A stretch of 64,000 bases of DNA from Minisyncoccota bacterium (GTDB lineage Bacteria > Patescibacteriota > Minisyncoccia > Phycocordibacterales > UBA9973), in contig JAQULK010000001.1 of the NCBI GenBank assembly GCA_028718635.1, forward strand, positions 88,626-152,625. The letters run 5' to 3'. Below are positions 5,328 through 62,895 of this stretch, piece after piece. Positions within the stretch are counted from its first letter, which is position 1. Each line of letters starts with the position of its first letter. The notes under the pieces were generated by a model. The model saw only the letters and a program-made list of their open reading frames with translations. It did no database searches and was not told the origin of the DNA. The translations under genes were made by a program, and so were the position numbers.

Positions 5328-5383
5328 GGATCACGTTAGAGATAGAGGGTCGCTGCGATCCCTCGCGATCTCTAACGTGATGG
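5328..5383. repeat. palindromic element related to family A (CACGTTAGAGAT...ATCTCTAACGTG)
   Basis: Terminal inverted repeats enclose a GC-rich inner palindrome AGAGGGTCGCTGCGATCCCTCGCG. Intergenic, between the ClpA-like gene and rny. Confidence 0.6.
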
Positions 5384-5612: not shown

Positions 5613-7142
5613 ATGAGTACAACAATAATAATTCTAATAGGAGCCCTGATACTCCTGTTGGGTGTGGGCGTGGGATACTATCTTCGTCTAATCATCGCCT
5701 TAGGAAAAAGAAGGTCTATTGAAATAGATATAAAACAGATGATGGTCGGCGCAAAAGAAGAAGCGCAGAAAATCACCGAAGAAGCAAAAAAGAAGTCTGA
5801 GGAACAACTGGCATATCTGAAAGAAGAAGAAAAAAAGAAAGAAATTGAATTTAAAGAGACAGAAAAAAGACTCATCAAAAAAGACGAGTTTTTGGATGCG
5901 CGACAAGTCGAGGTAAATAAAGAAGTGGAAAATATCAAAGTGAAGGTGGAAGAAATAAAAAAAATTCAAGAAAAAGTATTGAAAATAGAAGCAGAAAAAA
6001 TAGTAGAACTGGAAAGAGTGGCAAAATTAACCGAAATTGAGGCTAAAGATGAACTTTTAAAAGATGTTGAAAAAAAATATGAAGAAGATATTTTAGTTAG
6101 AATCCAAAAACTAGAGAATAGTAATGAGGAAAAGTTGGACCGAAGAGCCAAAGACATCTTGGCAACTTCTATCCAGCGCCTGTCTTCTAGTACTGCCTCT
6201 GAATTGATGACAACCGTAGTTACCATTCCAAACAACGAAATCAAGGGTAAAATAATCGGAAAAGAGGGTAGGAATATACGGGCATTTGAAAGAGCCTCCG
6301 GAGTTGAGCTTATTGTAGACGATACGCCTGGCTCAATAGTCATTTCTTCATTTGATCCAATCAGAAGACAAGTCGCCCGACTTGCTTTAGAAAATCTGAT
6401 ACTAGATGGACGCATTCAACCGGCTAAAATCGAAGAATTGGTAGAAAAGGCAAAAGAAGAAATAAATAAAATCATAAAAGAAAAAGGAGAACAGGCGGTT
6501 TATGAATGCGGTATATTTAATTTTGATCCACGCATCATCGCAATTATTGGCCGACTATATTTCCGTACAAGTTACGGACAAAACGTTCTTCAGCACTCTA
6601 TCGAAATGGCACATATCGCTGGAATGCTCGCAGAAGAATTGGGAGCAGATGTAGCCATCGCCAAAGCCGGAGCCTTGGTGCACGACATCGGTAAAGCCTT
6701 GGATCACGAAGTACAAGGAACGCATGTCGAAATAGGTATGCGTATTTTGCAAAAATTCGGAGCAGATGAACGCATTATTACTGCGATGAAAAGTCATCAC
6801 GAAGATTATCCTTATGAAACTATTGAATCCATCATTGTGCAAACAGCAGACTCTATCTCTGGCGGACGTCCCGGCGCGCGCCGTGATTCAGTGGAAAATT
6901 ATCTAAAGAGACTTCAAGAACTAGAAGCATTAGTAAATGCTTTTCCAGCGGTTGAAAAATCATATGCTTTGCAAGCTGGACGAGAAATCCGCATCTTTGT
7001 AACACCGGAAAAGATTTCTGATGCTGAAGCAAAACTTATGGCACGAGATATTGCTATAAAAATAGAACAAGAACTCAAATATCCGGGAGAAATCAAAGTC
7101 ACAATGATTCGCGAAACACGAATTATTGAGTACGCTCGCTAA
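5613..7142 (+). CDS. rny: ribonuclease Y
   Basis: 509 aa. N-terminal TM segment, Lys/Glu-rich coiled coil, KH domain (GKIIGKEGRNIRAFE) and HD domain (LVHDIGKA). Confidence 0.9.
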   Translation: MSTTIIILIGALILLLGVGVGYYLRLIIALGKRRSIEIDIKQMMVGAKEEAQKITEEAKKKSEEQLAYLKEEEKKKEIEFKETEKRLIKKDEFLDARQVEVNKEVENIKVKVEEIKKIQEKVLKIEAEKIVELERVAKLTEIEAKDELLKDVEKKYEEDILVRIQKLENSNEEKLDRRAKDILATSIQRLSSSTASELMTTVVTIPNNEIKGKIIGKEGRNIRAFERASGVELIVDDTPGSIVISSFDPIRRQVARLALENLILDGRIQPAKIEELVEKAKEEINKIIKEKGEQAVYECGIFNFDPRIIAIIGRLYFRTSYGQNVLQHSIEMAHIAGMLAEELGADVAIAKAGALVHDIGKALDHEVQGTHVEIGMRILQKFGADERIITAMKSHHEDYPYETIESIIVQTADSISGGRPGARRDSVENYLKRLQELEALVNAFPAVEKSYALQAGREIRIFVTPEKISDAEAKLMARDIAIKIEQELKYPGEIKVTMIRETRIIEYAR

Positions 7143-7147
7143 AAATT

Positions 7148-7252
7148 CTTAGAAATATAACTTTTGAAGGGGTTTCGAGCGCGACGGCGCGAGAACTTCA
7201 GGATTTTTTTCACCAGAAAAAAATCCGTACCGAAAAAAGTTTATATTTTAAG
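7148..7252. repeat. ~105-bp inverted-repeat-bounded element (family D, copy 1)
   Basis: Shares core GGGGTTTCGAGCGCGACGGCGCGAGAACTTCAGGA...TCCGTACCG with 18395..18507. Ends are AT-rich inverted repeats. Internal hairpin GGATTTTTTTCACCAGAAAAAAATCC. Confidence 0.6.
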
Positions 7253-7387
7253 AATTTTGTGAAACAACATAAATACTTGCCTAAAAAAACCCTTGATATA
7301 TAATGTAGGGGTATTAAAAATATAGGTTAAATGGCCCTCCAAAGGCGGGCAAGGTCGAAATATTACAAATATCATCTTAAAAAATAT

Positions 7388-7660
7388 ATGAATAAACAAG
7401 CATTAGCTGAATTAGTACATGGAAAGCTTGGCGGTACAAAAGTACAAGCTGAGGAAATAGTTGATTCAATATTTGATGCTATCATCGGAACCTTAAAAAA
7501 GGGAGGTGAAGTTTCAATTGCTGGCTTTGGAATCTTTTCCGTAAAGTCACGCGCAGCCCGCATGGCTCGCAATCCAAAAACTGGAGAGCAAGTAAAAGTG
7601 GCTGCAAAGAAAGTTCCAAAATTCCGACCCGCAAAAGGTTTGAAAGATACTATTGCCTAA
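7388..7660 (+). CDS. hup: HU-family DNA-binding protein
   Basis: HU signature GFGIFSVKSRAARMARNPKTGEQV. Start placed at the internal Met (MNKQALAELV), not at the ORF-track start 7331. Confidence 0.85.
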   Translation: MNKQALAELVHGKLGGTKVQAEEIVDSIFDAIIGTLKKGGEVSIAGFGIFSVKSRAARMARNPKTGEQVKVAAKKVPKFRPAKGLKDTIA

Positions 7661-11219: not shown

Positions 11220-11343
11220 TGTCAACAAACCACCTGTGGATAACTCATAAAATAAAAATATCTAGAAAAAATTTAAAGCGTCGTGGGTTCCCTGCCCTTA
11301 TGACTCCGAGGGCGAAGGCGCAGAAATTTTTTGCTAGATATTT

Positions 11344-13311: not shown

Positions 13312-14514
13312 ATGATGTTTTACAAACACTGCAAAAATTATACAGTCGAGAGCGTGACCTCCGGCCACCCGGATAAAATCTGTGATCAAATATCAGATGC
13401 TATTTTAGACGCTTATTTAAAGTTAGACCCGAAAAGCCGAGTGGCTATAGAAACCTTTGGCGGACATGGTCGCCTTGTTATTGGTGGAGAAGTAACATCC
13501 CTCGGGCATAGTCCTACGGGCGAGCCAAAAGGAAAAGTAAATTATGTGCAAATAGCGCGAGATGTTTATAAAAAGATTGGCTACACAGACAAGCTTGAAA
13601 TCTCTGCCAATATAGTCACTCAGTCTCCAGACATTGCTTTAGGAGTAGACACAGGCGGTGCTGGAGACCAAGGCATCATGTATGGATATGCCACTGATGA
13701 AACGCCTGAGTTTCTACCAAAAGGAATAGTGTTGGCGCACAAACTTGCAAAACAATTAGAAGAAATGAGAAAAAGTGGAAAAATAAAATGGCTCAGGCCC
13801 GATGGAAAAACGCAAGTCACTTATACCAATGGGAAATTAAATACTGTACTAGTTAGCACCCAACATTCTCCAAATATTAAACTGGAAGAAATAAAAAAGG
13901 AAATTACAAAAAAAGTGATATTACCCTTACTCTCCAAAGAAGAAAGAAAAAGGGCCTGTCCCGTTAGAGGCCACGAGGGCTCGCAGTGTGTCTCTGCCTC
14001 TAATGGGATAAAAATTTTAGTAAATCCAACGGGTAAATTTACTGCTGGCGGTTTCGAAGCGGACACCGGTCTAACTGGAAGAAAAATAATGATAGATACT
14101 TATGGCGGGCTCGTTCCGCACGGAGGCGGATGTTTCTCTGGGAAAGATGCCACCAAAGTAGACCGCTCTGGCGCTTATATGGCGCGTTTTGTCGCCAAAA
14201 ATCTCGTAGCAAACGGATACGGCAAAGAAGCCTTAGTGTCTGTCGCCTACGCTATCGGAATGGCAGAACCCTTGATGATAGAAGCCATAAATGAAAAAGG
14301 TGAAGATTTGTCAAAAGTAGTCCGAGAGCATTTTGATTTCAAACCGCTTGCCATAATAAAAAAACTTGGTCTTCAAAATCCTATTTATGAGCAAACCGCT
14401 ACCTATGGCCATTTCGGTAAAAAAAATCTCCCGTGGGAAAAGATTTGTCCCGTTAGAGGCCGCGAGGGCTCGCAGCGACCCTCTGCCTCTAACGGGATTG
14501 AAAAAACAAAATAA
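13312..14514 (+). CDS. metK: S-adenosylmethionine synthetase carrying two in-frame family A repeat insertions
   Basis: ESVTSGHPDKICDQISDAILDA, GGGCFSGKD and ATYGHFG motifs. Repeat copies 13959..14008 and 14447..14497 encode CPVRGHEGSQCVSASNG and CPVRGREGSQRPSASNGIEKTK. Confidence 0.85.
   Translation: MMFYKHCKNYTVESVTSGHPDKICDQISDAILDAYLKLDPKSRVAIETFGGHGRLVIGGEVTSLGHSPTGEPKGKVNYVQIARDVYKKIGYTDKLEISANIVTQSPDIALGVDTGGAGDQGIMYGYATDETPEFLPKGIVLAHKLAKQLEEMRKSGKIKWLRPDGKTQVTYTNGKLNTVLVSTQHSPNIKLEEIKKEITKKVILPLLSKEERKRACPVRGHEGSQCVSASNGIKILVNPTGKFTAGGFEADTGLTGRKIMIDTYGGLVPHGGGCFSGKDATKVDRSGAYMARFVAKNLVANGYGKEALVSVAYAIGMAEPLMIEAINEKGEDLSKVVREHFDFKPLAIIKKLGLQNPIYEQTATYGHFGKKNLPWEKICPVRGREGSQRPSASNGIEKTK
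13959..14008. repeat. family A palindromic element (CCCGTTAGAGGC...GCCTCTAATGGG) inside metK
   Basis: Inverted-repeat termini. Internal CACGAGGGCTCGCAG. In-frame within the coding region. Confidence 0.8.
14447..14497. repeat. family A palindromic element at the metK 3' end
   Basis: Near-identical to 62844..62895. Extends the metK C-terminus by about 22 codons. Confidence 0.8.
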
Positions 14515-18394: not shown

Positions 18395-18507
18395 AGAAGT
18401 TTGGAAAATAGTTTTCGCAGGGGTTTCGAGCGCGACGGCGCGAGAACTTCAGGAATTTTTAAGCTTCAAAAATTCCGTACCGGAGAAAACTTATTTTCCA
18501 AACTTCT
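18395..18507. repeat. family D element, copy 2
   Basis: 22-bp inverted repeats AGAAGTTTGGAAAATAGTTTTC / GAAAACTTATTTTCCAAACTTCT. Core identical to copy 1. Abuts the rpsO stop codon. Confidence 0.65.
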
Positions 18508-21997: not shown

Positions 21998-22120
21998 ATC
22001 CCGTTAGAAGTCTCCTAGTTAAACAAAGTCACAAAGAGTGATATAATAAGTTTGTATTTTTTATAGTCGTTATTAATAAATTAACTAACGGAAATCTAAA
22101 GATTTCCTACTTCTAACGGG
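21998..22120. repeat. family A element (~120 bp, CCCGTTAGAAGTCTCC...TCCTACTTCTAACGGG)
   Basis: Fills exactly the gap between the xth stop and the ATG of the downstream gene. Confidence 0.75.
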
Positions 22121-22738
22121 ATGAAAGCAGCTAGATTAGAAACTCTTGCAGACGGCATTTTTGCCATCGTGATGACAATCTTGGTTTTTCAAATTAGGCC
22201 GCCGGTTTTGGTGGATCCTACGAATGCCAAAGAACTTGCCTTCGCGATAAAACACATGCTCCCGATTTTCCTTAGTTATCTTTTAAGTTTTTCTCTGCTT
22301 TTTTCTTATTGGCGGGCACATCATTTCTTTGTTTCAGTTTATGCGAAAAATATTGACGTCAATCTGACGAATCTTAATGCGATTTTTTTCTTATTCCTCG
22401 CGCTTATTCCTTTTTCCACTTCTCTGCTCGGAGAGTATAGCAACAATCAATTTTCAATAGTTATTTTTGGCATTCATACCGTCATTATGGGTTTTTGTCT
22501 TTTTGCCATTCGCAGTTATGTGTTTAACTCCGATCATATAAAAAATATCGATGTCAGCAGACAAGAAATACGCCGTGGTACTGTCCGAACCTTTGTGCCT
22601 GTGGTTTTCGGTTTATTGGCAATTGTTCTTTCTTTTTTCAACAATTATCTATCTCTCGTTCTCTTTACCCTCGCTGTGATTTTCAACTTTTCTCAAACAA
22701 GTACTGTCTTTATAGATAAATTTATCAAAAATCTATAG
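22121..22738 (+). CDS. DUF1211/TMEM175-like membrane protein
   Basis: RLETLADGIFAIVMTILVFQI matches the RxxxFSDGV motif, followed by further TM helices. Confidence 0.65.
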   Translation: MKAARLETLADGIFAIVMTILVFQIRPPVLVDPTNAKELAFAIKHMLPIFLSYLLSFSLLFSYWRAHHFFVSVYAKNIDVNLTNLNAIFFLFLALIPFSTSLLGEYSNNQFSIVIFGIHTVIMGFCLFAIRSYVFNSDHIKNIDVSRQEIRRGTVRTFVPVVFGLLAIVLSFFNNYLSLVLFTLAVIFNFSQTSTVFIDKFIKNL

Positions 22739-25911: not shown

Positions 25912-27594
25912 TTACTTCACTCCATGTTTCGTGTGTAGTTTTTTTACCTCTTCTTCTTCTAATTCTTCTTTTTTTTCTTTTCCGCGCAGACCGAGAGTTT
26001 TGAGTTCCGCATCCCCAAGCATATTTAAAGATTTTACCAATTCAGACAAATGTTCCACGGTATTTTTCTCCGGGGCATCCAGCACTTCTTCGAGCAACGC
26101 ATGCAAAATCCACCCCATCCGCGGTCCGGAAGTTATTCCGAGTTCTTTTATCATAAATTCTCCGTTGATTTTTAGCTGTCCGACAGAAATCGGATCCCTC
26201 AAAGCCTCCTCGATCATGGCAAAATATTTTCGAAGCCGATACGGGGCTTCTTTCTTTTTCATTCCCACCCTGTCGCACTCACGGACATCCATTAAAAGCC
26301 AAATATTTTCTTTGCCGACTTTTGTAATAATTCTTCGCACTGCCGAAAGTGTGATCAATTCCGTATCGGAAAAAAACATATGATTGCGCACAAGCTTGGA
26401 CACCAATTCAATTTCTTTTTTAGGAAATTTTAATCTCTCCATTATTTTTTTTGCCATTCGCGCCCCGACAACTTCATGCCCGTAAAAAGTAAATTTCTTT
26501 TTAGCTTTTAAAGACGAAGACGGGGAAATAAATTTGCTTTCGCGGGGTGTCTCGCAGGCTGACGAGCCGAGAGGCAGCGCTGTGCGAGCACGCACAGACA
26601 GCGACCCCGAGAAAGCAGAATTTATTTCCCCGTCTTGTTTCCCTGCAAGTCTTCTAGCTCGCGGTTTCCCAATATCATGAAAAAGCGCTGCGAGCCTTAT
26701 TTCTAAAGACCAATTCTTGTTCGCTGCATGTTGCAATGCAAGTAATGAATGATTCCAAACATCATAAATATGCTCCCCCCCTTGTTCACAATCCACGCCT
26801 TCGAGTAATTCAGGAATTATATTTTTTAACAAATTAAATTTCTGAAGCATTAGCACTCCAGAAGAAGCATTGGCACTAGTTGTTATTTTTACAAATTCAT
26901 CTCGGATTCTTTCCTCAGAAATTTTTTTTATTAATTCCGAATTTTTCAAAATACTTTCCGTTGTTTCTTGCGCAATAAAAAAATTAAGTTGGCAAGAGAA
27001 ACGCACCGCGCGCAACATCCGAAGAGCATCTTCGGCAAAGCGGTCATCTGGATCCCCTACCGCTTTTAACGTCTTGTCCTTAATGTCCTTTATGCCGTCA
27101 AACAAATCTACGAGGTGTCCTTTAGGGCTTAAGGCCATTGCATTGACTGTAAAATCACGTCTCTTGAGGTCATCCTCTAACTTATCACTGAATTTTACCT
27201 CATCAGGATGCCGAAAATCGCTGTATTTTGCCTCTGTTCTATATGGAGTAACTTCAATTATGAAATTATGGGATGTTTCACGAATAACGTCTTGTATTTC
27301 CCCCTCTCCTTTACAAGGAGAGGGTTGGGGTGAGGTTCCCAATGTTTCACGGGAAACAACCACTGCGACCGTTCCAAACGTATTTTCATATACAGTCTTC
27401 TCAAAAAGCCCTATTATTTGTTCCGGTTTTGCATTCGTCGTGACATCCCAGTCGTTTGGTATTTTATCCATTAAAAGATCTCGAACACACCCGCCAACTA
27501 AATATGCCTCAAATCCGGCCTTTTCGAGCGTATTTGTTACATGTGAAACTTCTTTGGGGATTTTGGATATTAAGTTTTTAGTTATTGAATCCAC
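25912..27594 (-). CDS. cca: CCA-adding tRNA nucleotidyltransferase with HD domain, carrying two in-frame palindromic insertions
   Basis: GGCVRDLLM and RRDFTVNAMA (polymerase head). HD motif LFHDIGKP. Insertions at about 27296..27345 and 26518..26625. Confidence 0.85.
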   Translation of the reverse strand: MDSITKNLISKIPKEVSHVTNTLEKAGFEAYLVGGCVRDLLMDKIPNDWDVTTNAKPEQIIGLFEKTVYENTFGTVAVVVSRETLGTSPQPSPCKGEGEIQDVIRETSHNFIIEVTPYRTEAKYSDFRHPDEVKFSDKLEDDLKRRDFTVNAMALSPKGHLVDLFDGIKDIKDKTLKAVGDPDDRFAEDALRMLRAVRFSCQLNFFIAQETTESILKNSELIKKISEERIRDEFVKITTSANASSGVLMLQKFNLLKNIIPELLEGVDCEQGGEHIYDVWNHSLLALQHAANKNWSLEIRLAALFHDIGKPRARRLAGKQDGEINSAFSGSLSVRARTALPLGSSACETPRESKFISPSSSLKAKKKFTFYGHEVVGARMAKKIMERLKFPKKEIELVSKLVRNHMFFSDTELITLSAVRRIITKVGKENIWLLMDVRECDRVGMKKKEAPYRLRKYFAMIEEALRDPISVGQLKINGEFMIKELGITSGPRMGWILHALLEEVLDAPEKNTVEHLSELVKSLNMLGDAELKTLGLRGKEKKEELEEEEVKKLHTKHGVK

Positions 27595-27906: not shown

Positions 27907-28166
27907 CAAGATTCTGCTTGTCCTTTATTTTTTTTCATAAAGGCTTGCTGTATAAAGATTTTATTAAAAATGTGGATAACTATGTGCGTACTGTTCATAA
28001 AGGACAGAGTTAGAAGTTGTCTCTTATTGCCATCTTTTTCACAATAATGCTTATAAAATAAGGATATTTTTATAAGAGACATAAATATTTCTCAGATTTT
28101 GTCTTTTCGTTTCACGTGAAACCACGTTAATCGTGAAACCTCATATTTTATTGTAAAATAAAGAAG

Positions 28167-28577
28167 ATGCCAAAAGTATTTACATCAATAACTCAAAAAA
28201 CTGGCGAAATTGGAGAAAACATAGCAGTAAGGTTTCTTGTGAAACATAATTTTTTAATATTAAATAGAAATTACACAAAAAAATGGGGAGAAATAGATAT
28301 CGTAGCTGAAAAAGCCAATAAATTATACTTTGTTGAAGTGAAATCTGTGTCAAGGTTCGACCTTGACAAGGTTACACATGAAACAATAGATCAATATCAT
28401 CCTGAGGACAATATGCACCCGTGGAAACTAAAACGTTTATCGCGAACAATTCAAACTTACCTTTTATCCGAAAAAATACCAGATGAAAAAGAATGGCAAG
28501 TGGATTTATTAATCGTGTTCCTTGATATAAAAAATAAAAAGGCAAAAATAAAAGTAGTCAATGATATTATTTTGTGA
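28167..28577 (+). CDS. YraN-family (UPF0102) endonuclease-like protein
   Basis: 136 aa. GEIGENIAVRFL...GEIDIVAE...YFVEVK pattern. Confidence 0.6.
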   Translation: MPKVFTSITQKTGEIGENIAVRFLVKHNFLILNRNYTKKWGEIDIVAEKANKLYFVEVKSVSRFDLDKVTHETIDQYHPEDNMHPWKLKRLSRTIQTYLLSEKIPDEKEWQVDLLIVFLDIKNKKAKIKVVNDIIL

Positions 28578-30729: not shown

Positions 30730-30918
30730 GATTTCCTTTTCTAGCCTTTTAAAATAAGGGTAGAATCACAGGACGACCAATAGGTTCTGTAAACAAAAGG
30801 TTCTCACGATGTTACTATCTTCTCTGGAATTCAGTCAACTTGTACTATACCTCTCTTCAGAACTATGTTTTAAGGATAGTTCAAAAACAGCCAAAAGTCA
30901 ATTTAATGGAAAATTAAT

Positions 30919-31290
30919 GTGGATAACCCCCACACCTTTTGTTTTATACCTTCAGGTCATATAATGATTATTATGTATTATATATATGTTCTAAAAAGCA
31001 TAAAAGATGATAAATTATATATCGGTTCGACTAATGACCTGAAGCGAAGACTTTCGGAACACAACAATGGATTTAATCGTTCAACAAAAGCTAGGCGACC
31101 ATTTGAACTTCGCTATTATGAAGCTTGTGCCAATGAACATGATGCTAGAACTAGAGAATATAATTTAAAAAAAGATGGAAAAGCGCTTGGGCAACTAAAA
31201 AGAAGGATTTCCGAAAGTCTTAAATAAATCCCCACAACCTATTTGGATAGGTGTGGGGATAAAACGAAAGGTGTGGGGGATAACCCTTTT
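30919..31290. mobile_element. GIY-YIG gene bounded by inverted repeats (family B: TGTGGATAACCCCCACACCTTT / AAAGGTGTGGGGGATAACC)
   Basis: Inverted repeats at 30921..30942 and 31270..31290 enclose one small GIY-YIG ORF. A solo derivative lies at 61068..61216. Confidence 0.6.
30964..31227 (+). CDS. small GIY-YIG nuclease-family protein
   Basis: YYIYVLKS...KLYIGSTNDLKRRLSEHN pattern. Start placed after the inverted repeat. Confidence 0.65.
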   Translation: MIIMYYIYVLKSIKDDKLYIGSTNDLKRRLSEHNNGFNRSTKARRPFELRYYEACANEHDARTREYNLKKDGKALGQLKRRISESLK

Positions 31291-33733: not shown

Positions 33734-35809
33734 GTGGATATAGAAGAAAAACATCTAAAAGGTCTAAATAGTGAGCAAAAAGAAGCGGCGCTTCATATGA
33801 AGGGACCGCTTTTGATTATTGCCGGAGCGGGAGCTGGGAAAACAAAAACGATTACGCACAGAATTGTAAATCTTATAAAAAACGGCGTGTCTCCCGATAA
33901 AATTTTGGCAGTGACCTTCACTAATAAGGCCGCTAAAGAAATGCGAGAGAGAATTATTTTAGAAATTAATAAAAACGCAAAAGGTCAAGAAAAAATTCCT
34001 TTCGTTTCCACTTTTCATTCTCTGGGAGTTTATATAATAAAAGAAAACGCCCGACTGCTCGGACTGACGAGATATTTTACTATTTTAGACGAAGGAGACG
34101 CGACCACTCTTATAAAAAATATTTTAAAAGAGCTTAGCATAGACCCGAAGCAATATGATCCAAAAAAAATAAAAAATATAATCTCGCGGGAAAAAGGAAA
34201 ATTTACAAATCTAACGGATTATATGGAGAAAGCCCTCTCCTTCGGGGAGGGTTGGGAGGGGTCTCTGGGTAAAATTACAGCTCAAGTTTGGAATTTGTAT
34301 GAAAAACAAAAAATGAAAGAGAATTCTTTAGACTTCGATGATCTGCTCTTAAAAGCGGTAAAACTACTGAAAGAAAACGAGGAAATTAGAAAAATATATC
34401 AAGAAAAATGGGAATATATCCACATTGATGAATATCAGGACACGAACGAAGCGCAATATTTGATGTCTAAATTACTTTCCGAAAAAAGTGGAAATATTTG
34501 CGTAGTCGGGGATGCCGATCAAAATATATATTCTTGGCGCGGAGCAAATTTGAAAAACATTCTGAATTTTGAAAAAGATTACCCGAATACAAAAATAATT
34601 TTGTTGGAACAAAATTACAGGTCTACAAAAAATATTCTAGAGGCGGCAAATGAAGTAATTAAGAAAAATAAATATAGGCCGGATAAAAATTTGTTTACGA
34701 AAAACATTGAAGGCGAAAAAATAGGCTTCTATGAAGCCCTAGACGAAACCGATGAAGCTGAATTCGTCGCCACAAAGATTATGGAGATACTAGACAGCGG
34801 GGCAGACTTGCTTTTTCGGGGTGTCTCGCAGGCTGACGAGCCGAGAGGCAGCGCTGTGCGAGCACGCACAGACAGCGACCCCGCAAAAGCAGAGTCTGCC
34901 CCGCTGTCTGAAATAGCCGTTTTGTATCGCGCAAATTTTCAATCGCGGGCGCTCGAAGAAGCGATGCTTCGGTACAATATTCCTTACCAAGTTTTAGGGG
35001 TTAAATTTTTTGAAAGAAAGGAAATAAAAGACACTCTCGTTTATTTGCGTGCAGCTCTCAATCCCGATAGCCTGTCTGATATAAAAAGGATCATTAATTT
35101 CCCATCGAGAGGCATTGGAAAAGTAACCTTGATGAAAATCTTTGCCGGCCAAAGAGAAACCCTGCCGGTAAAAATGCAAATAAAAATTAATAGTTTCTAT
35201 GAAACATTGGAAGAGATAAAGGAGAAAATAAATGATTTAAAAACAAGCGATCTCATAAAATTCGTAATAAAAAAGTCCGGAATTGAAACAGAACTTTCCT
35301 CTGGCACTGAAGAAGATATGGAAAGATTAGAAAACATCAAAGAGCTCGCCACCCTTGCGCTCAAATATGACAATCTAAAAAATGGAGCGGGTATAGAAAA
35401 ACTTTTAGAAGATGCCTCGCTTGCTTCAGATCAAGACTCTTTAATAATAAATCAAGAAAAGAAAGAAATAAAAAATGCGGTAAAATTAATGACAGTACAT
35501 GCTTCAAAAGGCCTTGAATTTGAATATGTTTTTGTTGTTGGATTAGAAGACGGGCTTTTTCCGCACGAGAGAATGGGAGACAGCCCAGCCTCCGCACAAG
35601 GCTTCGGCGAGACGCAGGAGGAAGAAAGAAGGCTTTTTTATGTGGCACTTACCCGCGCAAGGAGAAAATTATTTTTATCATTTGCGAATTTCCGCACTAT
35701 TTTCGGTTCGCGCAACATCAACGCTCCTTCAGAATTTATTTCTGATATTCCAGCAGATTTATTTGAAAGGGAAGGCGAAGATAGCGGGATAAAAACAATT
35801 TATTTATAA
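33734..35809 (+). CDS. uvrD: UvrD/PcrA-family ATP-dependent DNA helicase with two in-frame palindromic insertions
   Basis: Motif I AGAGAGKTKTITHR, DEYQDTN, and motifs V/VI. Insertions at about 34228..34268 and 34800..34905. Confidence 0.85.
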   Translation: MDIEEKHLKGLNSEQKEAALHMKGPLLIIAGAGAGKTKTITHRIVNLIKNGVSPDKILAVTFTNKAAKEMRERIILEINKNAKGQEKIPFVSTFHSLGVYIIKENARLLGLTRYFTILDEGDATTLIKNILKELSIDPKQYDPKKIKNIISREKGKFTNLTDYMEKALSFGEGWEGSLGKITAQVWNLYEKQKMKENSLDFDDLLLKAVKLLKENEEIRKIYQEKWEYIHIDEYQDTNEAQYLMSKLLSEKSGNICVVGDADQNIYSWRGANLKNILNFEKDYPNTKIILLEQNYRSTKNILEAANEVIKKNKYRPDKNLFTKNIEGEKIGFYEALDETDEAEFVATKIMEILDSGADLLFRGVSQADEPRGSAVRARTDSDPAKAESAPLSEIAVLYRANFQSRALEEAMLRYNIPYQVLGVKFFERKEIKDTLVYLRAALNPDSLSDIKRIINFPSRGIGKVTLMKIFAGQRETLPVKMQIKINSFYETLEEIKEKINDLKTSDLIKFVIKKSGIETELSSGTEEDMERLENIKELATLALKYDNLKNGAGIEKLLEDASLASDQDSLIINQEKKEIKNAVKLMTVHASKGLEFEYVFVVGLEDGLFPHERMGDSPASAQGFGETQEEERRLFYVALTRARRKLFLSFANFRTIFGSRNINAPSEFISDIPADLFEREGEDSGIKTIYL
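34800..34905. repeat. ~100-bp GC-rich palindromic element shared with cca (26518..26625)
   Basis: Core GGGGTGTCTCGCAGGCTGACGAGCCGAGAGGCAGCGCTGTGCGAGCACGCACAGACAGCGACCCC is identical at both loci. Short inverted flanks. In-frame in both host genes. Confidence 0.8.
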
Positions 35810-35813
35810 ATAT

Positions 35814-36695
35814 ATGATACACAAAGCAAAAAAATCCCTAGGGCAAAACTTTTTAAAATCTGAAATGGCCTTAAAAAAAATTGTTGAAGCCGGGGAAGTA
35901 AAAAAGAGCGATATAGTTTTAGAAATAGGACCAGGCAAAGGAGCGCTCACGTCTAAACTTTTAGAAAAAGCAAAAACTGTAATTGCGGTAGAGAAGGACC
36001 GCGAACTTTTTGAATTTTTAAAAGAAAAATTTAAAAAAGAAATAAAATCAAAATCTCTCCTCTTGATACAGGGAGATATTTTGGAGTTCGACCCCCTCTT
36101 AATCTCCCCCTTGGCAGGGGGAGAGGGAACAATTAACTACAAAATTATCGCCAACATTCCTTACAATATTACTGGTGCAATTTTGAAAAAGTTTTTGACG
36201 GCAAAAAATCAACCGGAGAGGATGATTTTAATGGTCCAGCACGAAGTGGCTAAACGCATAATGGCTCGCGACCCACGCCACGGCGGGGCAGGTGGCAAAG
36301 AAAGCATTCTTTCAATTTCGGTCAAAGCTTACGGTGAACCAAAGATGATTATGAAGGTGAATAAAAGATATTTTTCTCCTGCACCAAAAGTTGACTCAGC
36401 TATAATTGCGATAAAAAATATTTCTAGGGAAAGATTCACCTTATCCCAAAATTCACCTCACCCCAACCCTCTCCTTATTAAGGAGAGGGAGACATTTGAA
36501 GAAAAATTCTGGGAAATAGTAAAGACTGGTTTTGCACATAAAAGGAAAAAACTCTCCAGCAATCTAAAGAATGTTTGCCAAAGTGTTTGCCAAAGCAAGG
36601 CTTTGGCAAACTTGGGAAATAAAAGAGCTGAGGATTTAACTCTTAACGACTGGATTATGCTGACTAAAGGGGAGATGAGCCGACCATCGGAGTAA
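35814..36695 (+). CDS. rsmA: 16S rRNA (adenine1518/1519-N6)-dimethyltransferase
   Basis: LGQNFL and EIGPGKGALT motifs. Two in-frame GC-rich palindromic insertions encoding DPLLISPLAGGEGT and NSPHPNPLLIKERET. Confidence 0.85.
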   Translation: MIHKAKKSLGQNFLKSEMALKKIVEAGEVKKSDIVLEIGPGKGALTSKLLEKAKTVIAVEKDRELFEFLKEKFKKEIKSKSLLLIQGDILEFDPLLISPLAGGEGTINYKIIANIPYNITGAILKKFLTAKNQPERMILMVQHEVAKRIMARDPRHGGAGGKESILSISVKAYGEPKMIMKVNKRYFSPAPKVDSAIIAIKNISRERFTLSQNSPHPNPLLIKERETFEEKFWEIVKTGFAHKRKKLSSNLKNVCQSVCQSKALANLGNKRAEDLTLNDWIMLTKGEMSRPSE

Positions 36696-43803: not shown

Positions 43804-44346
43804 ATGACTGAAAAATCAAAAAAATTAATACAAGAGGAAATGTTGAATCTGCCAAAAGAAGCGCAAGATGCCATCAATGCTTCAAATTGGGAAAAACAAT
43901 CTGAAGAAATTGGAAAAAAATACTTACTGAATGAGGATGAAATTTATACTTTTCAACTAGAAACAGCTTGTTTTTTACTTGGTCTTATTGATGAAGATCA
44001 ATACCAAAAAAATATCGAAGATGGCATAGGCACCAGTAAAGCTGAAGCAGAAAAAATATCTGAAGAAGTAATACAGAAAATACTTATTCCTATCAATGAT
44101 CTTTTTGTAAAAAATATTAAAAAAAGCGATAAGGTAAAAAACGCAACGGCTGAGCAAAATCTTAATTTTATTTTATCCGGCGGGGATTATACGGCGTTTT
44201 TGGATGTTCCTCCTCTCGTTGATAAGGAGGGGAATGAGGGGAGGTTCTTAACTAATTCAAATTCACCTCACCCCGACCCTCTCCTTAGTAAGGAGAGGGG
44301 GAATACTGAAGAAACAGTCTTACCAGCCTTTTTTATTAAAAAATAA
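43804..44346 (+). CDS. hypothetical protein (paralogue of the next gene)
   Basis: 180 aa. N-terminus similar to 44364..44957. Carries an in-frame palindromic insertion encoding SNSPHPDPLLSKERGN. Confidence 0.45.
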   Translation: MTEKSKKLIQEEMLNLPKEAQDAINASNWEKQSEEIGKKYLLNEDEIYTFQLETACFLLGLIDEDQYQKNIEDGIGTSKAEAEKISEEVIQKILIPINDLFVKNIKKSDKVKNATAEQNLNFILSGGDYTAFLDVPPLVDKEGNEGRFLTNSNSPHPDPLLSKERGNTEETVLPAFFIKK

Positions 44347-44978: not shown

Positions 44979-45258
44979 ATCCCGTTAGAGATCACTTATG
45001 TTTTATTACACATATATTTTAAAAAGTAAGAAGGACGGTAAAATTTACACTGGATATACGCAAGACCTACGGAAGCGCCTGAATCAGCATAATAAAGGTT
45101 TATCTACATATACGAAAGGACGAGGCCCATTTATTTTGATATACTATGAAGGGTGTCTATTAGAAAGTAAAGCGAAGTCGAGAGAATTATTTTTAAAATC
45201 GGGAATGGGCAAGCGTTATCTAAAAAATAGATTAGGCGCTTCCTATCTCTAACGGGAT
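44979..45258. mobile_element. GIY-YIG gene bounded by perfect 14-bp inverted repeats ATCCCGTTAGAGAT / ATCTCTAACGGGAT (family A archetype)
   Basis: The inverted repeats directly flank the 84-aa GIY-YIG ORF. Termini match the solo family A repeats. Confidence 0.7.
44998..45252 (+). CDS. small GIY-YIG nuclease-family protein
   Basis: YYTYILKSKKDGKIYTGYTQDLRKRLNQHN. Confidence 0.7.
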   Translation: MFYYTYILKSKKDGKIYTGYTQDLRKRLNQHNKGLSTYTKGRGPFILIYYEGCLLESKAKSRELFLKSGMGKRYLKNRLGASYL

Positions 45259-45721
45259 GCAATTCAAAGTTCCACAATTTTTAGACATTGAAGATAAAAT
45301 ATTCGGCCCTTTTACTTTTAGGGAATTTGTTTATTTAGCCGGCGGGGCAGGCTTGTGTTTTATTCTTTATAAATTGCTGGGTCTTATTTTAGGAATAATA
45401 CCCATTTTAGCTGTCGCGGGATTTTCGCTCGCTCTTACTTTTTACAAACCAAATAATAAACCATTTATTAATATAATAGAATCAGGTTTTAAGTATTTTA
45501 CCCAAAATAAACTTTATATTTGGAAGAAAAAAGCAAATAAAACCACCTCTTCCCCCGCCTTCTCCAAAGGAGAAGGAGCCCTCTCCTTCGGGGAGGGTTT
45601 GGGAGGGGTAAACAAAATTCAAATGATGCATCCAGGCAGTTCCCCGTTGAGTGGGAGCAAGTTACGAGACTTGGCTTGGAGTTTAGATGTGCTGGACTTG
45701 AGTAAGCAACAATCCCGTTAG
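45257..45721 (+). CDS. PrgI-family (VirB3-analogue) membrane protein
   Basis: MQFKVPQFLDIEDKIFGPFTFREFVYLAGGAG followed by two TM helices. Lies immediately upstream of VirB4. In-frame palindromic insertion near the C-terminus. Confidence 0.55.
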   Translation: MQFKVPQFLDIEDKIFGPFTFREFVYLAGGAGLCFILYKLLGLILGIIPILAVAGFSLALTFYKPNNKPFINIIESGFKYFTQNKLYIWKKKANKTTSSPAFSKGEGALSFGEGLGGVNKIQMMHPGSSPLSGSKLRDLAWSLDVLDLSKQQSR

Positions 45722-45833
45722 AAGCCGCGGTCGCAGTTTAAAAAATATAAATATGTTAAATAGAAAAATAAAAATTAATAGAATAACAAAGCATAATCAC
45801 GGTCTGTTGACCGCGACCTGCTTCTAACGGGAT
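45711..45833. repeat. family A element (GAAGC subtype)
   Basis: Left inverted repeat contains the TAG stop of the PrgI-like gene. Right inverted repeat ends ...TAACGGGATG, giving the ATG of the next ORF. Inverse-orientation copy at 61725..61805. Confidence 0.75.
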
Positions 45834-51740: not shown

Positions 51741-51832
51741 TATTTCCTCTCCCCCTTAATAAGGGGGAGACTGTGAGGGGGTTCTTAATTAATTCACCTC
51801 ACCCCAGCCCTCTCCTTATTAAGGAGAGGGGG
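51741..51832. repeat. compound GC-rich palindromic element (family C)
   Basis: CTCCCCCTTAATAAGGGGGAG, TTCACCTCACCCC and CCCTCTCCTTATTAAGGAGAGGG. Same compound as the insertion in 43804..44346. Ends at the jag stop codon. Confidence 0.7.
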
Positions 51833-52357
51833 CTAAATTCCACCCACGTATTTGATCACCACTCGGCGATCGCGCCCGAAACCTATGGATTCGGTTTTAA
51901 GGTCATTTGATTCAGATAAAAATTCATGAACGATTCTGCGTTCGAAGGCTGACATTGGGTCAACTTCTATATTAGACTTAAAATATCTCGCTCTTTCAGA
52001 CATCATATGGGCTATTGCACGGATATTCTCAACATGTTTTTTTTGAAAACCGTTTATATCTATAATAACAGACCCTCCCCCAACCCCTCCCTTGGCAGGG
52101 AGGGGGGTCCCTTCTCCCCCTGCTAAGGGGGAGTGCCCGAAGGGCGGGGGGGTCTTAGCTTCTATTATTCTATGAACAAGGTGGCTTAACGCGTGCAAAC
52201 CCTCACCATCACGCCCAATAAAGAAATGTGGCTCGACAACCTCTATGGAAACCCATACATTTTTATGCCCATCATCAACTATTGAAATTCCATTTAGTTT
52301 TACTGTAGTTTTTTCAATTAAGTCTTTTATTAAATTTTGAATCTCTTCTTTTTCCAT
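51833..52357 (-). CDS. jag: Jag/KhpB (KH + R3H) RNA-binding protein
   Basis: R3H motif ERRIVHEFL. In-frame double-palindrome insertion encoding PPPFGHSPLAGGEGTPLPAKGGVGGGS. Confidence 0.8.
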   Translation of the reverse strand: MEKEEIQNLIKDLIEKTTVKLNGISIVDDGHKNVWVSIEVVEPHFFIGRDGEGLHALSHLVHRIIEAKTPPPFGHSPLAGGEGTPLPAKGGVGGGSVIIDINGFQKKHVENIRAIAHMMSERARYFKSNIEVDPMSAFERRIVHEFLSESNDLKTESIGFGRDRRVVIKYVGGI

Positions 52358-52477
52358 CCCGTTAGAAGCAGATCGCGATCAACTCGCGTATCTGCCATAT
52401 TAAGTTATTAATTTTATTAATATTTGATTTCATGTTTTGTTTGTTTTTAAATTGCGATCGCGGCTTCTAACGGGATC
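52356..52477. repeat. family A element (GAAGC subtype)
   Basis: Fills the yidC-jag spacer. One end supplies the jag ATG (CTAACGGGATG on the minus strand). The other ends 5 nt before the yidC stop. Confidence 0.75.
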
Positions 52478-53250: not shown

Positions 53251-53544
53251 TTACTTCACAGAATCAATGTGATTTTTTTGCCAAGGATGGCAACGCAGAA
53301 TGCGTTTCAACCCTAAATAAATTCCTTTCCATGCGCCATATTTTTCTATCGCTTGTTTGGTGTATTCAGAACAAGATGGATAAAAAACACAAGTGTTCGC
53401 TTTCAAAAAAATTGAAATGTTTTTTTGATAAAAATTAATCCCGTTAGAAGCCGCCCTCGCTAGTAAGCGAGTGCTACAGTCACCCTGGGGCGACTTGCTT
53501 CTAACGGGATTAATTAAGTTTTGAAAGAATTGTTTTAATTTCAT
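53251..53544 (-). CDS. yidD: membrane protein insertion efficiency factor YidD with in-frame family A repeat
   Basis: C.FYPSCSEY...RILRCHPW signature. N-terminal residues [24 protein letters not shown] are encoded by repeat 53438..53512. Confidence 0.7.
53438..53512. repeat. family A element inside the yidD 5' region
   Basis: CCCGTTAGAAGCCGCCCTCGC...GCGACTTGCTTCTAACGGGAT. Right end abuts the rnpA stop codon. Confidence 0.75.
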
Positions 53545-54117: not shown

Positions 54118-54137
54118 TTTATCCACAGTTTATCAAC
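54118..54137. promoter_or_regulatory. two tandem DnaA boxes (TTATCCACA then TTATCAACA)
   Basis: Perfect consensus 9-mer plus a 1-mismatch copy 2 bp downstream. Sits between rpmH and dnaA beside a GC-rich compound palindrome at 54035..54112. Confidence 0.6.
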
Positions 54138-54194
54138 AGAGTTAATAAGCTTTCAAAGATGTCTTCTATTTTAGAAATAGTATAATATGGAACT

Positions 54195-55532
54195 ATGAAC
54201 ACAAATCAATTGTGGAAAAGCTGTTTGCTAAAAATTGAGTCTGATATGTCTAAGGCAAATTTTAGCACTTGGTTTAAAAATACCTCTATTGCAAAAGAAG
54301 AAAACGGGATTGTTTATATAGGAGTGCCAAATGAATTTGTTCGTGATTGGCTTATAAATAAATATCATAAGCTTATAACCAAAACCATAGCTGAAAATTA
54401 TGAAAATATGCGCGCGGTGGAATATGTAATTACAAAAATAGAAAATTCTAAACAAGAAACAATAACAAGCGAAACTATAGAAAAAGAACTACCTTTGAGA
54501 GATTTATATATTAATCCGGAGAATAATCTAAATCCTCGCTACCATTTCAACTCTTTCATCGTGGGAACTTTCAATGAACTCGCCTATGCGGCAGCTCAGG
54601 CAATCATAGAGTCTCCGGGGACTAAATATAATCCATTTTTTATTTACGGCGGTACTGGTCTCGGAAAAACTCACTTAATTCAAGCTGTAGGAAATTCAGT
54701 AAAAGACAAATATCCCCATAAGAAAGTGCATTATATGACTCTGGAAAAATTCGCGACAGATTTTATAAACTCCCTTCAGAGTAATAAGGCAAATTCTTTC
54801 AAAGAAAAATACCGCAAATATGATCTTTTGATCATAGATGATATTCAATTTATCGGTAAAATGGAAAAAATTCAAGAAGAACTTTTCCACACATTTAATA
54901 CTTTTTATGAAAACAATAAGCAAATTATTTTTTCCTCTGATAAGCACCCTAATTACATTCCAGAACTAGCAGATCGTTTAAAATCACGTTTTGCTGCAGG
55001 AATGATAGTAGATGTCACTGAGCCGGAATACGAGTCTCGCCTTGCGATTATAAAAGTAAGGCTTCGTGAATTTAATATAGTCTTAGATGAAGATGTAATT
55101 GAATATGTCGCGTCATCTATCCAAGGGAATATCCGTGAACTTGAAGGGATCCTGAATCTTATTATTTGCCAATATCGCCTTAAAAATAAGGCTCCGGCAC
55201 TGCCTGAAGTCAAAAATTTGTTGAAAAATAGTATGAAACCAAAAAAGAATATAGCAATAAAAGATGTCGTAAAAATTGTGGCTGAGTATTATAAACTAGA
55301 AGAAATGTCTATATATGAAAAAACTAGAAAAAAAGAAATCGTAAAAACTAGACAAGTTATAATGTATCTGCTTCGAGAAGATTTCAGTGTCTCTTATCCA
55401 CTCATAGGGCAAAAATTAGGTGGAAAAGATCATACTACAGTGATGCATTCGTGTGTAAAAATAAAAGAAGATTTAAAAAATGATCCGCAATTAATACAAG
55501 AATTGGAACAAATAAGAATTTTGTTTAAATAA
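54195..55532 (+). CDS. dnaA: chromosomal replication initiator protein DnaA
   Basis: GGTGLGKTHL, LLIIDDIQF and C-terminal DNA-binding domain. TATAAT at 54181..54186 lies only about 8 nt before the ATG, possibly a leaderless transcript. Confidence 0.9.
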   Translation: MNTNQLWKSCLLKIESDMSKANFSTWFKNTSIAKEENGIVYIGVPNEFVRDWLINKYHKLITKTIAENYENMRAVEYVITKIENSKQETITSETIEKELPLRDLYINPENNLNPRYHFNSFIVGTFNELAYAAAQAIIESPGTKYNPFFIYGGTGLGKTHLIQAVGNSVKDKYPHKKVHYMTLEKFATDFINSLQSNKANSFKEKYRKYDLLIIDDIQFIGKMEKIQEELFHTFNTFYENNKQIIFSSDKHPNYIPELADRLKSRFAAGMIVDVTEPEYESRLAIIKVRLREFNIVLDEDVIEYVASSIQGNIRELEGILNLIICQYRLKNKAPALPEVKNLLKNSMKPKKNIAIKDVVKIVAEYYKLEEMSIYEKTRKKEIVKTRQVIMYLLREDFSVSYPLIGQKLGGKDHTTVMHSCVKIKEDLKNDPQLIQELEQIRILFK

Positions 55533-61067: not shown

Positions 61068-61216
61068 ATGTGGATAACCCCCACACCTTTCTTGATATCA
61101 CTTTTTATTCTTTAAATAAAACGTTAAGCAGGATAGTTTTTTAAGAGAAAATATTAATAAAATAATATTTTTACTGAAAAAGTAGAATAATATCAAGAAA
61201 GGTGTGGGGGATAACT
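61068..61216. repeat. solo family B element with 21-bp perfect inverted repeats CCCCCACACCTTTCTTGATAT
   Basis: Termini match the GIY-YIG element at 30919..31290. No ORF inside. Abuts the ruvC stop. Confidence 0.7.
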
Positions 61217-61724: not shown

Positions 61725-61805
61725 CCCGTTAGAAGCAGGTCGCGGTCAGACCGTGACTACTTAAATTAATATTATTAAAATTGCGACCGCGGCTTCTAAC
61801 GGGAA
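61725..61805. repeat. family A element (inverse copy of 45711..45833)
   Basis: Occupies exactly the 81 bp between the ruvB stop (TGA 61806..61808) and the ruvC ATG. Confidence 0.8.
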
Positions 61806-62843: not shown

Positions 62844-62895
62844 ATCCCGTTAGAGGCCGCGAGGGCTCGCAGCGACCCTCTGCCTCTAACGGGAT
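62844..62895. repeat. family A element (GAGGC subtype)
   Basis: Near-identical to 14447..14497. Lies 16 bp upstream of the ruvB ATG. Confidence 0.8.

Follow-up and report, generated by a model that had tools for sequence, protein, structure and literature searches.

Palindromic elements carrying a GIY-YIG nuclease gene are probable transposable elements of Patescibacteria

Two palindromic elements in a Patescibacteria chromosome

The DNA analysed here is a stretch of 64,000 nucleotides from a Minisyncoccota bacterium (assembly GCA_028718635.1, contig JAQULK010000001.1, positions 88,626 to 152,625 of the forward strand), referred to as the window. It is a segment of a bacterial chromosome with a GC content of about 37%, its genes include dnaA (54195-55532), dnaN, ruvC (61215-61724, minus strand), ruvB, a class-A penicillin-binding protein, tyrosyl-tRNA synthetase (TyrRS) and four tRNAs. 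The close relatives recovered are all metagenome-assembled genomes of Patescibacteria, labelled Nomurabacteria, Paceibacterota or similar. The window contains two palindromic elements bounded by inverted copies of the same 13-nt arm, CCCCCACACCTTT. Element 1 encloses a gene for a GIY-YIG nuclease of 84 amino acids, which we call family B; element 2 has no open reading frame (ORF) and lies against the ruvC stop codon. Judged from their sequences, these elements and the many related hairpins are mobile and resemble miniature inverted-repeat transposable elements (MITEs), and the GIY-YIG protein is probably their own nuclease. The features of the two elements are as follows.

30918-30926, minus strand: TGTGGATAA flank of element 1, exact reverse complement of the DnaA-box consensus TTATCCACA
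30923-31283: element 1 including its duplications, two arms with the ORF in the loop
30923-30926: left duplication of element 1, ATAA, the same as 31280-31283 and touching the arm
30927-30939, plus strand: left arm of element 1, CCCCCACACCTTT, from which the inverted repeat extends to about 30 nt with 87% complementarity
30960-30965, plus strand: TATAAT, a -10-like hexamer read from the sequence, 7 nt ahead of the ATG
30973-31227, plus strand: family-B GIY-YIG nuclease gene, 84 amino acids, single domain (PF01541)
31225-31228 and 31260-31263: TAAA duplication of the nested hairpin, the left copy contains the nuclease stop codon
31229-31259: nested minimal hairpin of the same family, 31 nt, TCCCCACAACCTAT-TTGG-ATAGGTGTGGGGA
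31267-31279, minus strand: right arm of element 1, AAAGGTGTGGGGG, an exact match
31280-31283: right duplication of element 1, ATAA, the same as the left copy and touching the arm
61069-61077, minus strand: TGTGGATAA flank of element 2, exact reverse complement of TTATCCACA
61074-61077: left duplication of element 2, ATAA, the same 4-mer as the right copy
61078-61210: element 2, putatively non-autonomous, 133 bp with an AT-rich centre and no ORF, its arms are the 13-nt family-B arms
61211-61214: right duplication of element 2, ATAA, followed by the ruvC stop codon (61215-61217, minus strand)

The 13-mer CCCCCACACCTTT occurs exactly four times in the window, as two inverted pairs (30927-30939 on the plus strand with 31267-31279 on the minus strand, and 61078-61090 on the plus strand with 61198-61210 on the minus strand). 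With up to two mismatches it has seven matches in the window against 0.68 expected, and none of 100 shuffled sequences reached seven.

An intact 84-residue ORF lies between the exact inverted pair of element 1, as the initial annotation had claimed in describing termini that flank a GIY-YIG ORF. The ORF start that it gave, 30919, is the GTG of a longer ORF obtained mechanically; the homologues have 84 amino acids and correspond to a start at the ATG at 30973. Folded as single-stranded DNA (ssDNA), element 1 has a long terminal stem (-56.5 kcal/mol, z -7.8). In this ORF form the gene sits at the tip of an arm-to-arm hairpin, with a conserved TATAAT 7 nt before its ATG. The -10 motif cttcagatcatataat is also kept in other ORF-bearing copies, and a -10-like hexamer so near the ATG suggests that the nuclease transcript is leaderless or has a very short leader.

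Element 2 spans 61074-61214 with its duplications. As had been annotated, it is an ORF-less element against the ruvC stop codon with a perfect inverted repeat of 21 bp (61078-61098 and 61190-61210); 107 nt of AT-rich sequence lie between the 13-nt arms. As ssDNA it too folds with a long terminal stem (-31.9 kcal/mol, z -8.25). The two loci agree over 24 nt at the left end (AATGTGGATAACCCCCACACCTTT) and over 19 nt at the right end (GAAAGGTGTGGGGGATAAC), the interiors of the two elements show no similarity. Element 2 belongs to a family with about 107 nt of cargo (about 133 bp from arm to arm), kept in at least seven genomes, which has imperfect terminal repeats of about 35 nt (CCCCCACACCTTTCTTGGTAT...) and an AT-rich, variable centre that is not conserved. 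As a family feature only the outer 13-nt arms are common to element 2 and the ORF element. Because there is no internal similarity and the family is conserved in its own right, we rejected the possibility that element 2 arose from the ORF element by deletion, and with it the earlier description of a 150-bp solo derivative.

Evidence for mobility

Homologous loci compared with the window are denoted by L-numbers (L013, L077 and so on). One genome per species was scanned with the pattern GWTAWCCCCCACACCTTT, which required GWTAWC beside the arm. Metagenomes were scanned for two arms 2-32 nt apart with the flanks unconditioned, this gave 85 stretches with 73 distinct hairpins, and these 73 form the flank-unbiased sample in which the mobility of short hairpins was assessed. 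The spacing of arm pairs was surveyed in 1.25 Mb of arm-enriched loci.

In 45 of the 73 flank-unbiased hairpins an identical 4-mer stands directly outside both arms, against 0.75% at random positions of the same loci. The 4-mers are TAAA (19), its complement TTTA (9), TATA (6) and ATAA (5), and they also include TTTT, CAAG and CTTG. About 19 of 24 distinct sites with ORF-bearing copies are duplicated too, mostly as ATAA, but as CAGG in L080 and ATGA in L089, and a further site retrieved by its protein (L185) has a TTTT duplication. A 6-bp duplication, GATAAC, was dropped in favour of 4 bp after the CAGG, ATGA and TTTT sites and the TAAA of the nested hairpin. The flanking 4-mers have a fixed length and a sequence specific to each site, they are therefore target-site duplications (TSDs).

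The nested hairpin marks an insertion within element 1. Compared with the closest relative, L077 (nuclease 96% identical), and with L078, the window has 35 extra nucleotides after the nuclease stop codon. Alignment of the three sequences resolves these into the 31-nt minimal hairpin (31229-31259) and a second copy of TAAA.

Occupancy of orthologous sites also differs. The site upstream of an M23 peptidase gene holds the ORF form in the window, L028, L074, L077, L078 and L183, and a short hairpin only in L064, L042 and L043. The site between TyrRS and ruvC holds the 107-nt cargo in the window and in L065, and a short hairpin in L047. Two bare copies of the DnaA-box-like sequence TGTGGATAAC are present in the window, and the orthologues of the first are occupied elsewhere.

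11235-11244, minus strand: bare TGTGGATAAC, an unoccupied site; the orthologous position has an ORF element in L013 and L114 and half an element in L018
27971-27980, minus strand: bare TGTGGATAAC, kept at the orthologous position in L028 and L064 and present as TGTGGATAAG in L074

Tandem copies are found in L035 and L102, nested copies in L029, L066 and the window. In L102 (3970-4110) four short family-B hairpins stand in tandem with a single TAAA between each, and their right arms are increasingly degenerate (AAGGTGTCTAGGG). In L164 (1840-1895) a family-B nuclease gene has its left arm separated from its -10 hexamer by an inserted hairpin of a different type (CCTCTACACTTTT...AAAAGTGTAGAGG). 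In L080 (2560-2910) a family-B ORF element whose arms are variants (CACCCACACCTTT / AAAGGTGTGGGTG) stands at the extreme 3' end of a tRNA gene; its duplication is CAGG, and a partial copy of the tRNA 3' end (CAGGCAC) comes after it.

The hairpins and the ORF forms are thus mobile, MITE-like elements as far as sequence comparison can tell, because they have 4-bp duplications, differ in their occupancy of orthologous sites and include the 35-nt hairpin insertion. Of the features that define MITEs, the terminal inverted repeats, the TSD of fixed length and variable sequence and the polymorphism for presence and absence were all found; an autonomous partner with a recognised transposase (DDE, HUH, serine or tyrosine recombinase, Cas1) was not found in this material. 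A motif upstream of the elements, GTCAAT-N15-TGTG, was considered as part of the element and rejected, it is the orthologous promoter region of the M23 peptidase gene.

Distribution and size classes

The genome scan gave 74 loci, about half of which (~35) are in Patescibacteria. The remaining matches are scattered singles in unrelated GC-richer genomes, roughly in the number estimated for chance. Among the matches are plus/minus arm pairs about 310 nt apart, each around a homologue of the family-B protein, and other pairs 30-126 nt apart. The initial annotation had called for a genome-wide search for the termini, and they are not unique to the two loci, being found at about 35 Patescibacteria genome loci and in the 85 metagenome stretches.

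Arm spacings in the 1.25 Mb survey fall into classes. There are 101 pairs at 40 nt or less, 10 at 41-100 nt, 10 at 101-200 nt (those listed being 104-110 nt apart) and 38 at 286-328 nt. Every inspected pair of the 286-328-nt class holds the GIY-YIG ORF. In the same 1.25 Mb no pair is spaced 361-1000 nt, and the two pairs more than 1 kb apart are both without duplications. No gene of transposase size was found between arms in this arm-enriched sequence, the sole ORF is that of the 84-residue GIY-YIG protein. In the short versions the hairpin stem often runs on into YRTTTT/AAAAYR. Both the ORF and the 107-nt cargo are found in either orientation relative to the TGTG flank, as is expected of an element with identical inverted ends.

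Viral contigs were searched and contained no hairpin copy and no close relative of the protein. The matches in a plasmid collection are confined to YazA-like genes and mislabelled chromosomes, and with these two results a phage or plasmid origin was rejected. No Rfam family or tRNA matches at the sites of elements 1 and 2.

The GIY-YIG proteins and their cognate arms

The family-B protein matches PF01541 with an E-value of 7.6e-19 and 68 bits (cut-off 22.6), and the domain covers residues 1-71 of 84. Its matches in Pfam and NCBIfam are confined to generic GIY-YIG families and weak hits to intron endonucleases. There are at least 390 clusters of homologues at 90% identity, nearly all of 84 amino acids, and those listed are 69-96% identical. 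Y5, Y16, G18, R26, H30 and E62 are invariant in an alignment of proteins from the Candidate Phyla Radiation (CPR), YazA and Ssn proteins. The nuclease is under strong purifying selection, and in L028 it is better conserved (87%) than the neighbouring housekeeping proteins (51-73%). With invariant catalytic residues and a conservation above that of its neighbours, the family-B protein looks active from its sequence.

The gene and the arms go together. Family-B loci found by the protein alone were inspected (L077, L078, L080, L081, L089, L091, L092, L095 and L183-L185) and have the gene between arms; the exception is L187, which has a degenerate left arm only. Across the relatives each of three clades of the protein, 49-53% identical, has an arm sequence unrelated to those of the other two: TCCCGTTAGAG for A, CCCCCACACCTTT for B and ACCCTGTTAAAT for C.

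Family A is also present in the window. Its ORF (44998-45252) encodes a second GIY-YIG protein of 84 amino acids, 49% identical to family B, and its arms are unlike those of family B, in agreement with the initial annotation of two GIY-YIG/MITE systems with unrelated termini. Family-A arms also bound about 10 ORF-less palindromes elsewhere in the window.

44980-45257, plus strand: family-A element with arms TCCCGTTAGAGAT (44980-44992) and ATCTCTAACGGGA (45245-45257)
5331-5380: family-A ORF-less hairpin, TGGA duplication
21999-22121: family-A ORF-less hairpin, TGAA duplication
52357-52475: family-A ORF-less hairpin, TCCA duplication
53439-53509: family-A ORF-less hairpin, TTAA duplication
61724-61804: family-A ORF-less hairpin, ATCA duplication
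62845-62894: family-A ORF-less hairpin, TTGA duplication
13959-14008, 14448-14497 and 45713-45832: family-A ORF-less hairpins without a clean duplication

The family-C protein has 91 amino acids and is about 52% identical to A and B. It is found in L050 (about 7080-7545) and, in reverse, in L010 (about 269-514), with arms ACCCTGTTAAAT / ATTTAACAGGGT. In L050 an ORF-less hairpin with family-C arms lies near the family-C gene.

The DnaA-box-like flank

The inverted repeat of the family-B elements begins at CCCCC; TGTGG lies outside it, in the host DNA of the flank, and the target 4-mer that was duplicated is ATAA. Before insertion the target at both loci therefore read TGTGG-ATAA-C. The earlier report of a DnaA box is correct in that TGTGGATAA matches the consensus exactly, but the box does not lie within the repeat as had been stated; it is flanking target DNA, and bare TGTGGATAAC stands at 11235-11244 and 27971-27980. 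We take TGTGGATAAC to be identical to the high-affinity R1 and R4 DnaA boxes of Escherichia coli.

In 310 kb of Patescibacteria loci bare TGTGGATAAC occurs about 9 times where 0.6 would be expected, an enrichment of about 15-fold. In the flank-unbiased sample all ATAA duplications are in the TGTGGATAA context, and 5 of the 73 hairpins adjoin GTGGATAA. Of 11 ORF-bearing sites that were retrieved independently, about 6-7 have box-like flanks, compared with 7% of the short hairpins. The box was considered as a part of the element or as an obligatory target, and both were rejected, the pattern of the genome scan had required GWTAWC and the unbiased sample has only the 5 of 73. Some targets of the TAAA class have a degenerate, arm-like G-rich sequence ahead of them, and neighbours in tandem arrays share one 4-mer. 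Insertion seems to favour a DnaA-box-like sequence already present in the genome, TGTGG-ATAA-C, and mimicry of the arm end GGTGTGGGGG by GTGTGG may be the reason. If the nuclease reads the arm and cuts just beyond it, it would also cut at such boxes, in which (G)GTGTGG resembles GGTGTGGGGG.

The element sites have single boxes only, clusters are found upstream of dnaA (54119-54138) and in L016. In L016 (1950-2620) three copies of GTGGATAA occur within 150 nt (2462-2610) beside a family-B ORF element, and this insertion may adjoin a cluster of DnaA boxes of the origin type. The bare TGTGGATAAC at 27971-27980 is about 130 nt from a parS-like sequence, TTTCACGTGAAAC (28110-28122). The cumulative GC skew has its minimum at about 28 kb, where gene orientation also switches. 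This region, with its box and parS-like site, competes as the location of oriC with the dnaA region at 54 kb, which has separate boxes (54119-54138), and the placement of oriC is therefore ambiguous.

Comparison with known systems

Ssn proteins are single-domain GIY-YIG proteins of about 94 amino acids (cd10448), which bind and cut ssDNA beside the NTS/SRM hairpins that flank their own genes (Chenal 2025, PMC11893778). The NTS-ssnA-NTS layout was likened by these authors to an insertion sequence (IS) (PMC11893778). Ssn proteins in this sense have a single domain and fewer than 150 amino acids, and the operational criterion is a BLASTP match to Neisseria meningitidis SsnA that covers at least 75% of the query at an E-value below 1e-10 (PMC11893778). 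As the reference we used SsnA of N. gonorrhoeae (NZ_CP119140.1, 1880787-1883993, L075), which has 94 amino acids, is flanked by NTS and is 97% identical to N. meningitidis SsnA. The record NZ_CP119140.1 is a 2.17-Mb N. gonorrhoeae replicon listed as a plasmid in PLSDB, it is evidently a chromosome.

The family-B protein is 35% identical to N. gonorrhoeae SsnA over 72 of 94 residues, with 40.8 bits and a pairwise E-value of 3e-11, estimated to be weaker than 1e-10 at proteome scale. Comparison of family B with Neisseria-type Ssn by hhalign gave 97% probability, an E-value of 1e-10 and 32% identity over 74 columns. CPR proteins score 44-56 bits against Bacillus subtilis YazA (UPF0213) and 32-41 bits against SsnA, and YazA scores 26 bits against SsnA. 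The SRM consensus HGTCWYN(0-2)YYVSBRHN(0-5)WNVSBRGN(0-2)RNCYNB has no match on either strand of the 64-kb window.

Family B has the Ssn features of a single domain below 150 amino acids and of a gene flanked by hairpin repeats that are also found elsewhere. The likeness is that in both systems a single-domain GIY-YIG protein of about 84-94 amino acids is encoded between inverted hairpin repeats which are also scattered in the genome. The proteins of the two systems are homologous, and in each system separate lineages have separate repeats. Very high conservation and a frequent location on short contigs are also common to the two protein families. There are also differences. Family B scores nearer to UPF0213/YazA and its C-terminal tail is unlike that of SsnA; its gene is inside the loop of one long-range hairpin, whereas ssnA of N. 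gonorrhoeae lies between complete local hairpins; and the host here is Patescibacteria. The 4-bp duplications and empty sites are documented here, whereas the Ssn paper notes an IS-like architecture only (PMC11893778). The system appears to work in the manner of Ssn/SRM, but it is unproven that it belongs to the Ssn family as that was defined.

Repetitive extragenic palindromic (REP) sequences with their REP-associated tyrosine transposases (RAYT), including REPINs, and the IS200/IS605 family also have dispersed intergenic palindromes, an enzyme gene between inverted copies and non-autonomous copies that are far commoner. They too recognise hairpins, probably in ssDNA. Their enzyme is an HUH Y1 transposase, whereas the elements described here have a GIY-YIG protein and no associated HUH protein. 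IS200/IS605 elements enter on the 3' side of a fixed sequence of four or five nucleotides and duplicate no target, in contrast to the 4-bp duplication found here.

Bacterial MITEs such as Correia elements and the Rickettsia palindromic elements are similar in size (about 30-150 bp), have terminal inverted repeats and a TSD, and are intergenic. They are sometimes found against stop codons and fall into sub-families with common ends. MITEs derive from or are moved by an IS with a conventional transposase, whereas the sole coding relative here is a gene for an 84-residue GIY-YIG nuclease.

The GIY-YIG catalytic core is also found in homing endonucleases of the I-TevI type and in the UPF0213 proteins (B. 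subtilis YazA, E. coli YhbQ; PDB 1zg2, 1ywl). The best match of family B to a solved structure is the UPF0213 protein BH0048 (E 1.8e-5). Like the gene of a homing endonuclease, the family-B gene stands amid what may be its own recognition site. Endonucleases of the I-TevI type differ in having a long DNA-binding domain and an intron location; among UPF0213 genes, yazA lies between trmNF and rsmI (one copy, from a B. subtilis record in the plasmid collection). The literature that we searched contained no account of palindromic GIY-YIG elements that duplicate their target, nor did it describe MITEs from CPR bacteria.

Proposed mechanism and alternative explanations

The arms and 4-bp duplications, the discrete size classes, the polymorphism of sites, the association of each protein clade with its arm and the intact catalytic residues were observed. 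From them we hypothesise that these are small palindromic transposable elements, widespread in Patescibacteria (of the Paceibacteria/Nomurabacteria type), with the GIY-YIG protein as the element's own nuclease. We consider this explanation probable. The mobile unit would be the inverted pair of 13-nt arms, CCCCCACACCTTT ... AAAGGTGTGGGGG, which would form one hairpin in ssDNA or a cruciform, with the cargo in its loop. The 84-residue protein would recognise its cognate hairpin or arm as Ssn does and nick the two strands with an offset of 4 nt, both at the boundary of the arm and in the target. The insertion would then be completed, and the stagger filled, through ligation or repair by the host. 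The nuclease would also act in trans on the far commoner ORF-less hairpins and on the copies with about 107 nt of cargo. On this view element 1 is putatively autonomous, and element 2 is non-autonomous and belongs to a different sub-lineage. A bolder version, in which these elements form an unrecognised class of prokaryotic transposon whose sole gene encodes an 84-residue GIY-YIG nuclease, with a 4-nt stagger, hairpins mobilised in trans and an ORF form that prefers DnaA boxes, is one we can put forward only tentatively.

Several points weigh against the nuclease as the agent of movement. GIY-YIG nucleases are hydrolytic and we know of none that performs strand transfer, the insertion step is unexplained by such an enzyme, and this is the weak point of the proposal. 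The ORF-less hairpins favour TAAA/TTTA/TATA and the ORF-bearing copies (TGTG)GATAA, so that the mechanism or the specificity of the enzyme may differ between them. The GWTAWC required in the genome scan inflated the apparent association with DnaA boxes. Several ORF-bearing sites are conserved across genera, many copies are thus old and vertically inherited. The nested hairpin is the one sign of activity in the present genome, and the window has only two family-B copies.

Some of these points would suit a rival explanation in which the hairpins are plain MITEs that depend on a conventional transposase encoded elsewhere, such as a DDE enzyme like those of IS5 or IS701. The GIY-YIG genes would then be selfish passengers of the homing type, which copy themselves into the loops with the arms as short homology. 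Duplications of 4 bp rich in A/T are typical of DDE transposition, and those found here fit it; the absence of strand transfer by hydrolytic GIY-YIG enzymes and the different target preferences of ORF-bearing and ORF-less copies point the same way. The ratio of short ORF-less hairpins to ORF-bearing copies is about 3:1 even where the loci were chosen by means of the ORF, and the ORF is found in either orientation relative to the flank (the window, L028 and L074 against L003, L013 and L035), as arm-templated repair would give. Against this, the 1.25 Mb contains no insert of transposase size between arms. The three GIY-YIG clades each have private arms, two of them with the same 4-bp duplication, and three separate unseen transposases would therefore be needed. 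Moreover, the repeats recognised by Ssn proteins are the very ones between which their genes lie (PMC11893778). We consider this rival explanation unlikely.

We also think it improbable that the protein is a domesticated host enzyme of the Ssn type, which would cut ssDNA at chromosomal hairpins, for instance to restrict or modulate incoming or replicating ssDNA in the way proposed for Neisseria, with repeats kept for this role and negligible mobility at present. SsnA/NTS modulates transformation and a domesticated IS-like unit has been suggested for it (PMC11893778), the nuclease is under strong purifying selection, and genomes whose neighbouring proteins are only 40-53% identical still have the ORF copy in its place upstream of the M23 peptidase gene. 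The site-specific 4-bp duplications, the tandem and nested copies (L035, L029, L066, L102) and the 35-nt insertion indicate continuing insertion instead, and parallel systems within one small genome more closely resemble competing selfish families. A regulatory DNA or RNA signal that is kept by selection and does not move, such as a DnaA-titrating site, an origin-related site or a terminator, would account for the enrichment of bare TGTGGATAAC, for the terminator-like score of the junction between box and arm in a consensus scan and for the position of boxes upstream of -35-like hexamers on the minus strand. It is at odds with the 5 of 73 unbiased hairpins beside GTGGATAA, with flanking 4-mers that are variable and duplicated, with the variation in cargo and in occupancy of orthologous sites, and with a main stem that has no following U-tract and no Rfam match. 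A purely regulatory motif is essentially excluded on these sequence data, largely by the duplication statistics, and we give it very little weight.

Implications of mobile GIY-YIG elements

The partnership of a single-domain GIY-YIG protein with hairpin repeats, established in 2025 for Ssn, is here extended to Patescibacteria and to a clade of proteins nearer to UPF0213. At least two cognate pairs of protein and arm coexist, and three are found across relatives, in genomes noted as streamlined. The 4-bp duplications, empty sites and nested or tandem copies are evidence of insertion at the sequence level, which was missing from the work on Ssn. With a tiny protein and a 13-nt arm, the idea of a mini-transposon that encodes only a nuclease is directly testable. 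If a class of GIY-YIG transposons exists, systems of the Ssn/SRM type in general would be, or descend from, such transposons. Each pair of protein and arm is a candidate structure- and sequence-specific DNA nuclease of new specificity, which makes it interesting for the development of ssDNA tools. Where insertions stand next to DnaA-box-like sequences upstream of promoters, or abut a stop codon as at ruvC, they may affect regulation and annotation in CPR bacteria. The elements probably also fragment CPR assemblies, because many homologues are on very short contigs.

Other repeats and a further nuclease gene in the window

A GC-rich repeat of 86 nt has copies 95% identical at 26515-26634 and 34790-34908, and is read through in frame in two ORFs, one of 560 amino acids (25912-27594, minus strand) and one that is UvrD/PcrA-like (33734-35809, plus strand). 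Each copy stands between perfect 15-nt inverted copies of its own flank, gacggggaaataaat/atttatttccccgtc and gacagcggggcagac/gtctgccccgctgtc. This signature sets the repeat apart from the GIY-YIG hairpins, which have direct duplications of 4 bp, and is reminiscent of the in-frame palindromic elements of the Rickettsia type.

A further family of GC-rich palindromes (ACCTCACCCCAACCCTCTCCTTATTAAGGAGAGGG...) is found at 27296-27336, 36449-36510, 44259-44320 and 51790-51851, with related sequences at 34231, 45577 and 50633; no associated ORF was identified for it in the window. The repeat GGGGTTTCGAGCGCGACGGCGCGAGAACTTCAGGA has two copies, at 7149-7209 and 18400-18460. A gene for a small nuclease of UPF0102 (YraN-like, PD-(D/E)xK type) lies at 28167-28577 near the tRNA cluster, and its synteny is kept in L028, L043, L064 and L074.

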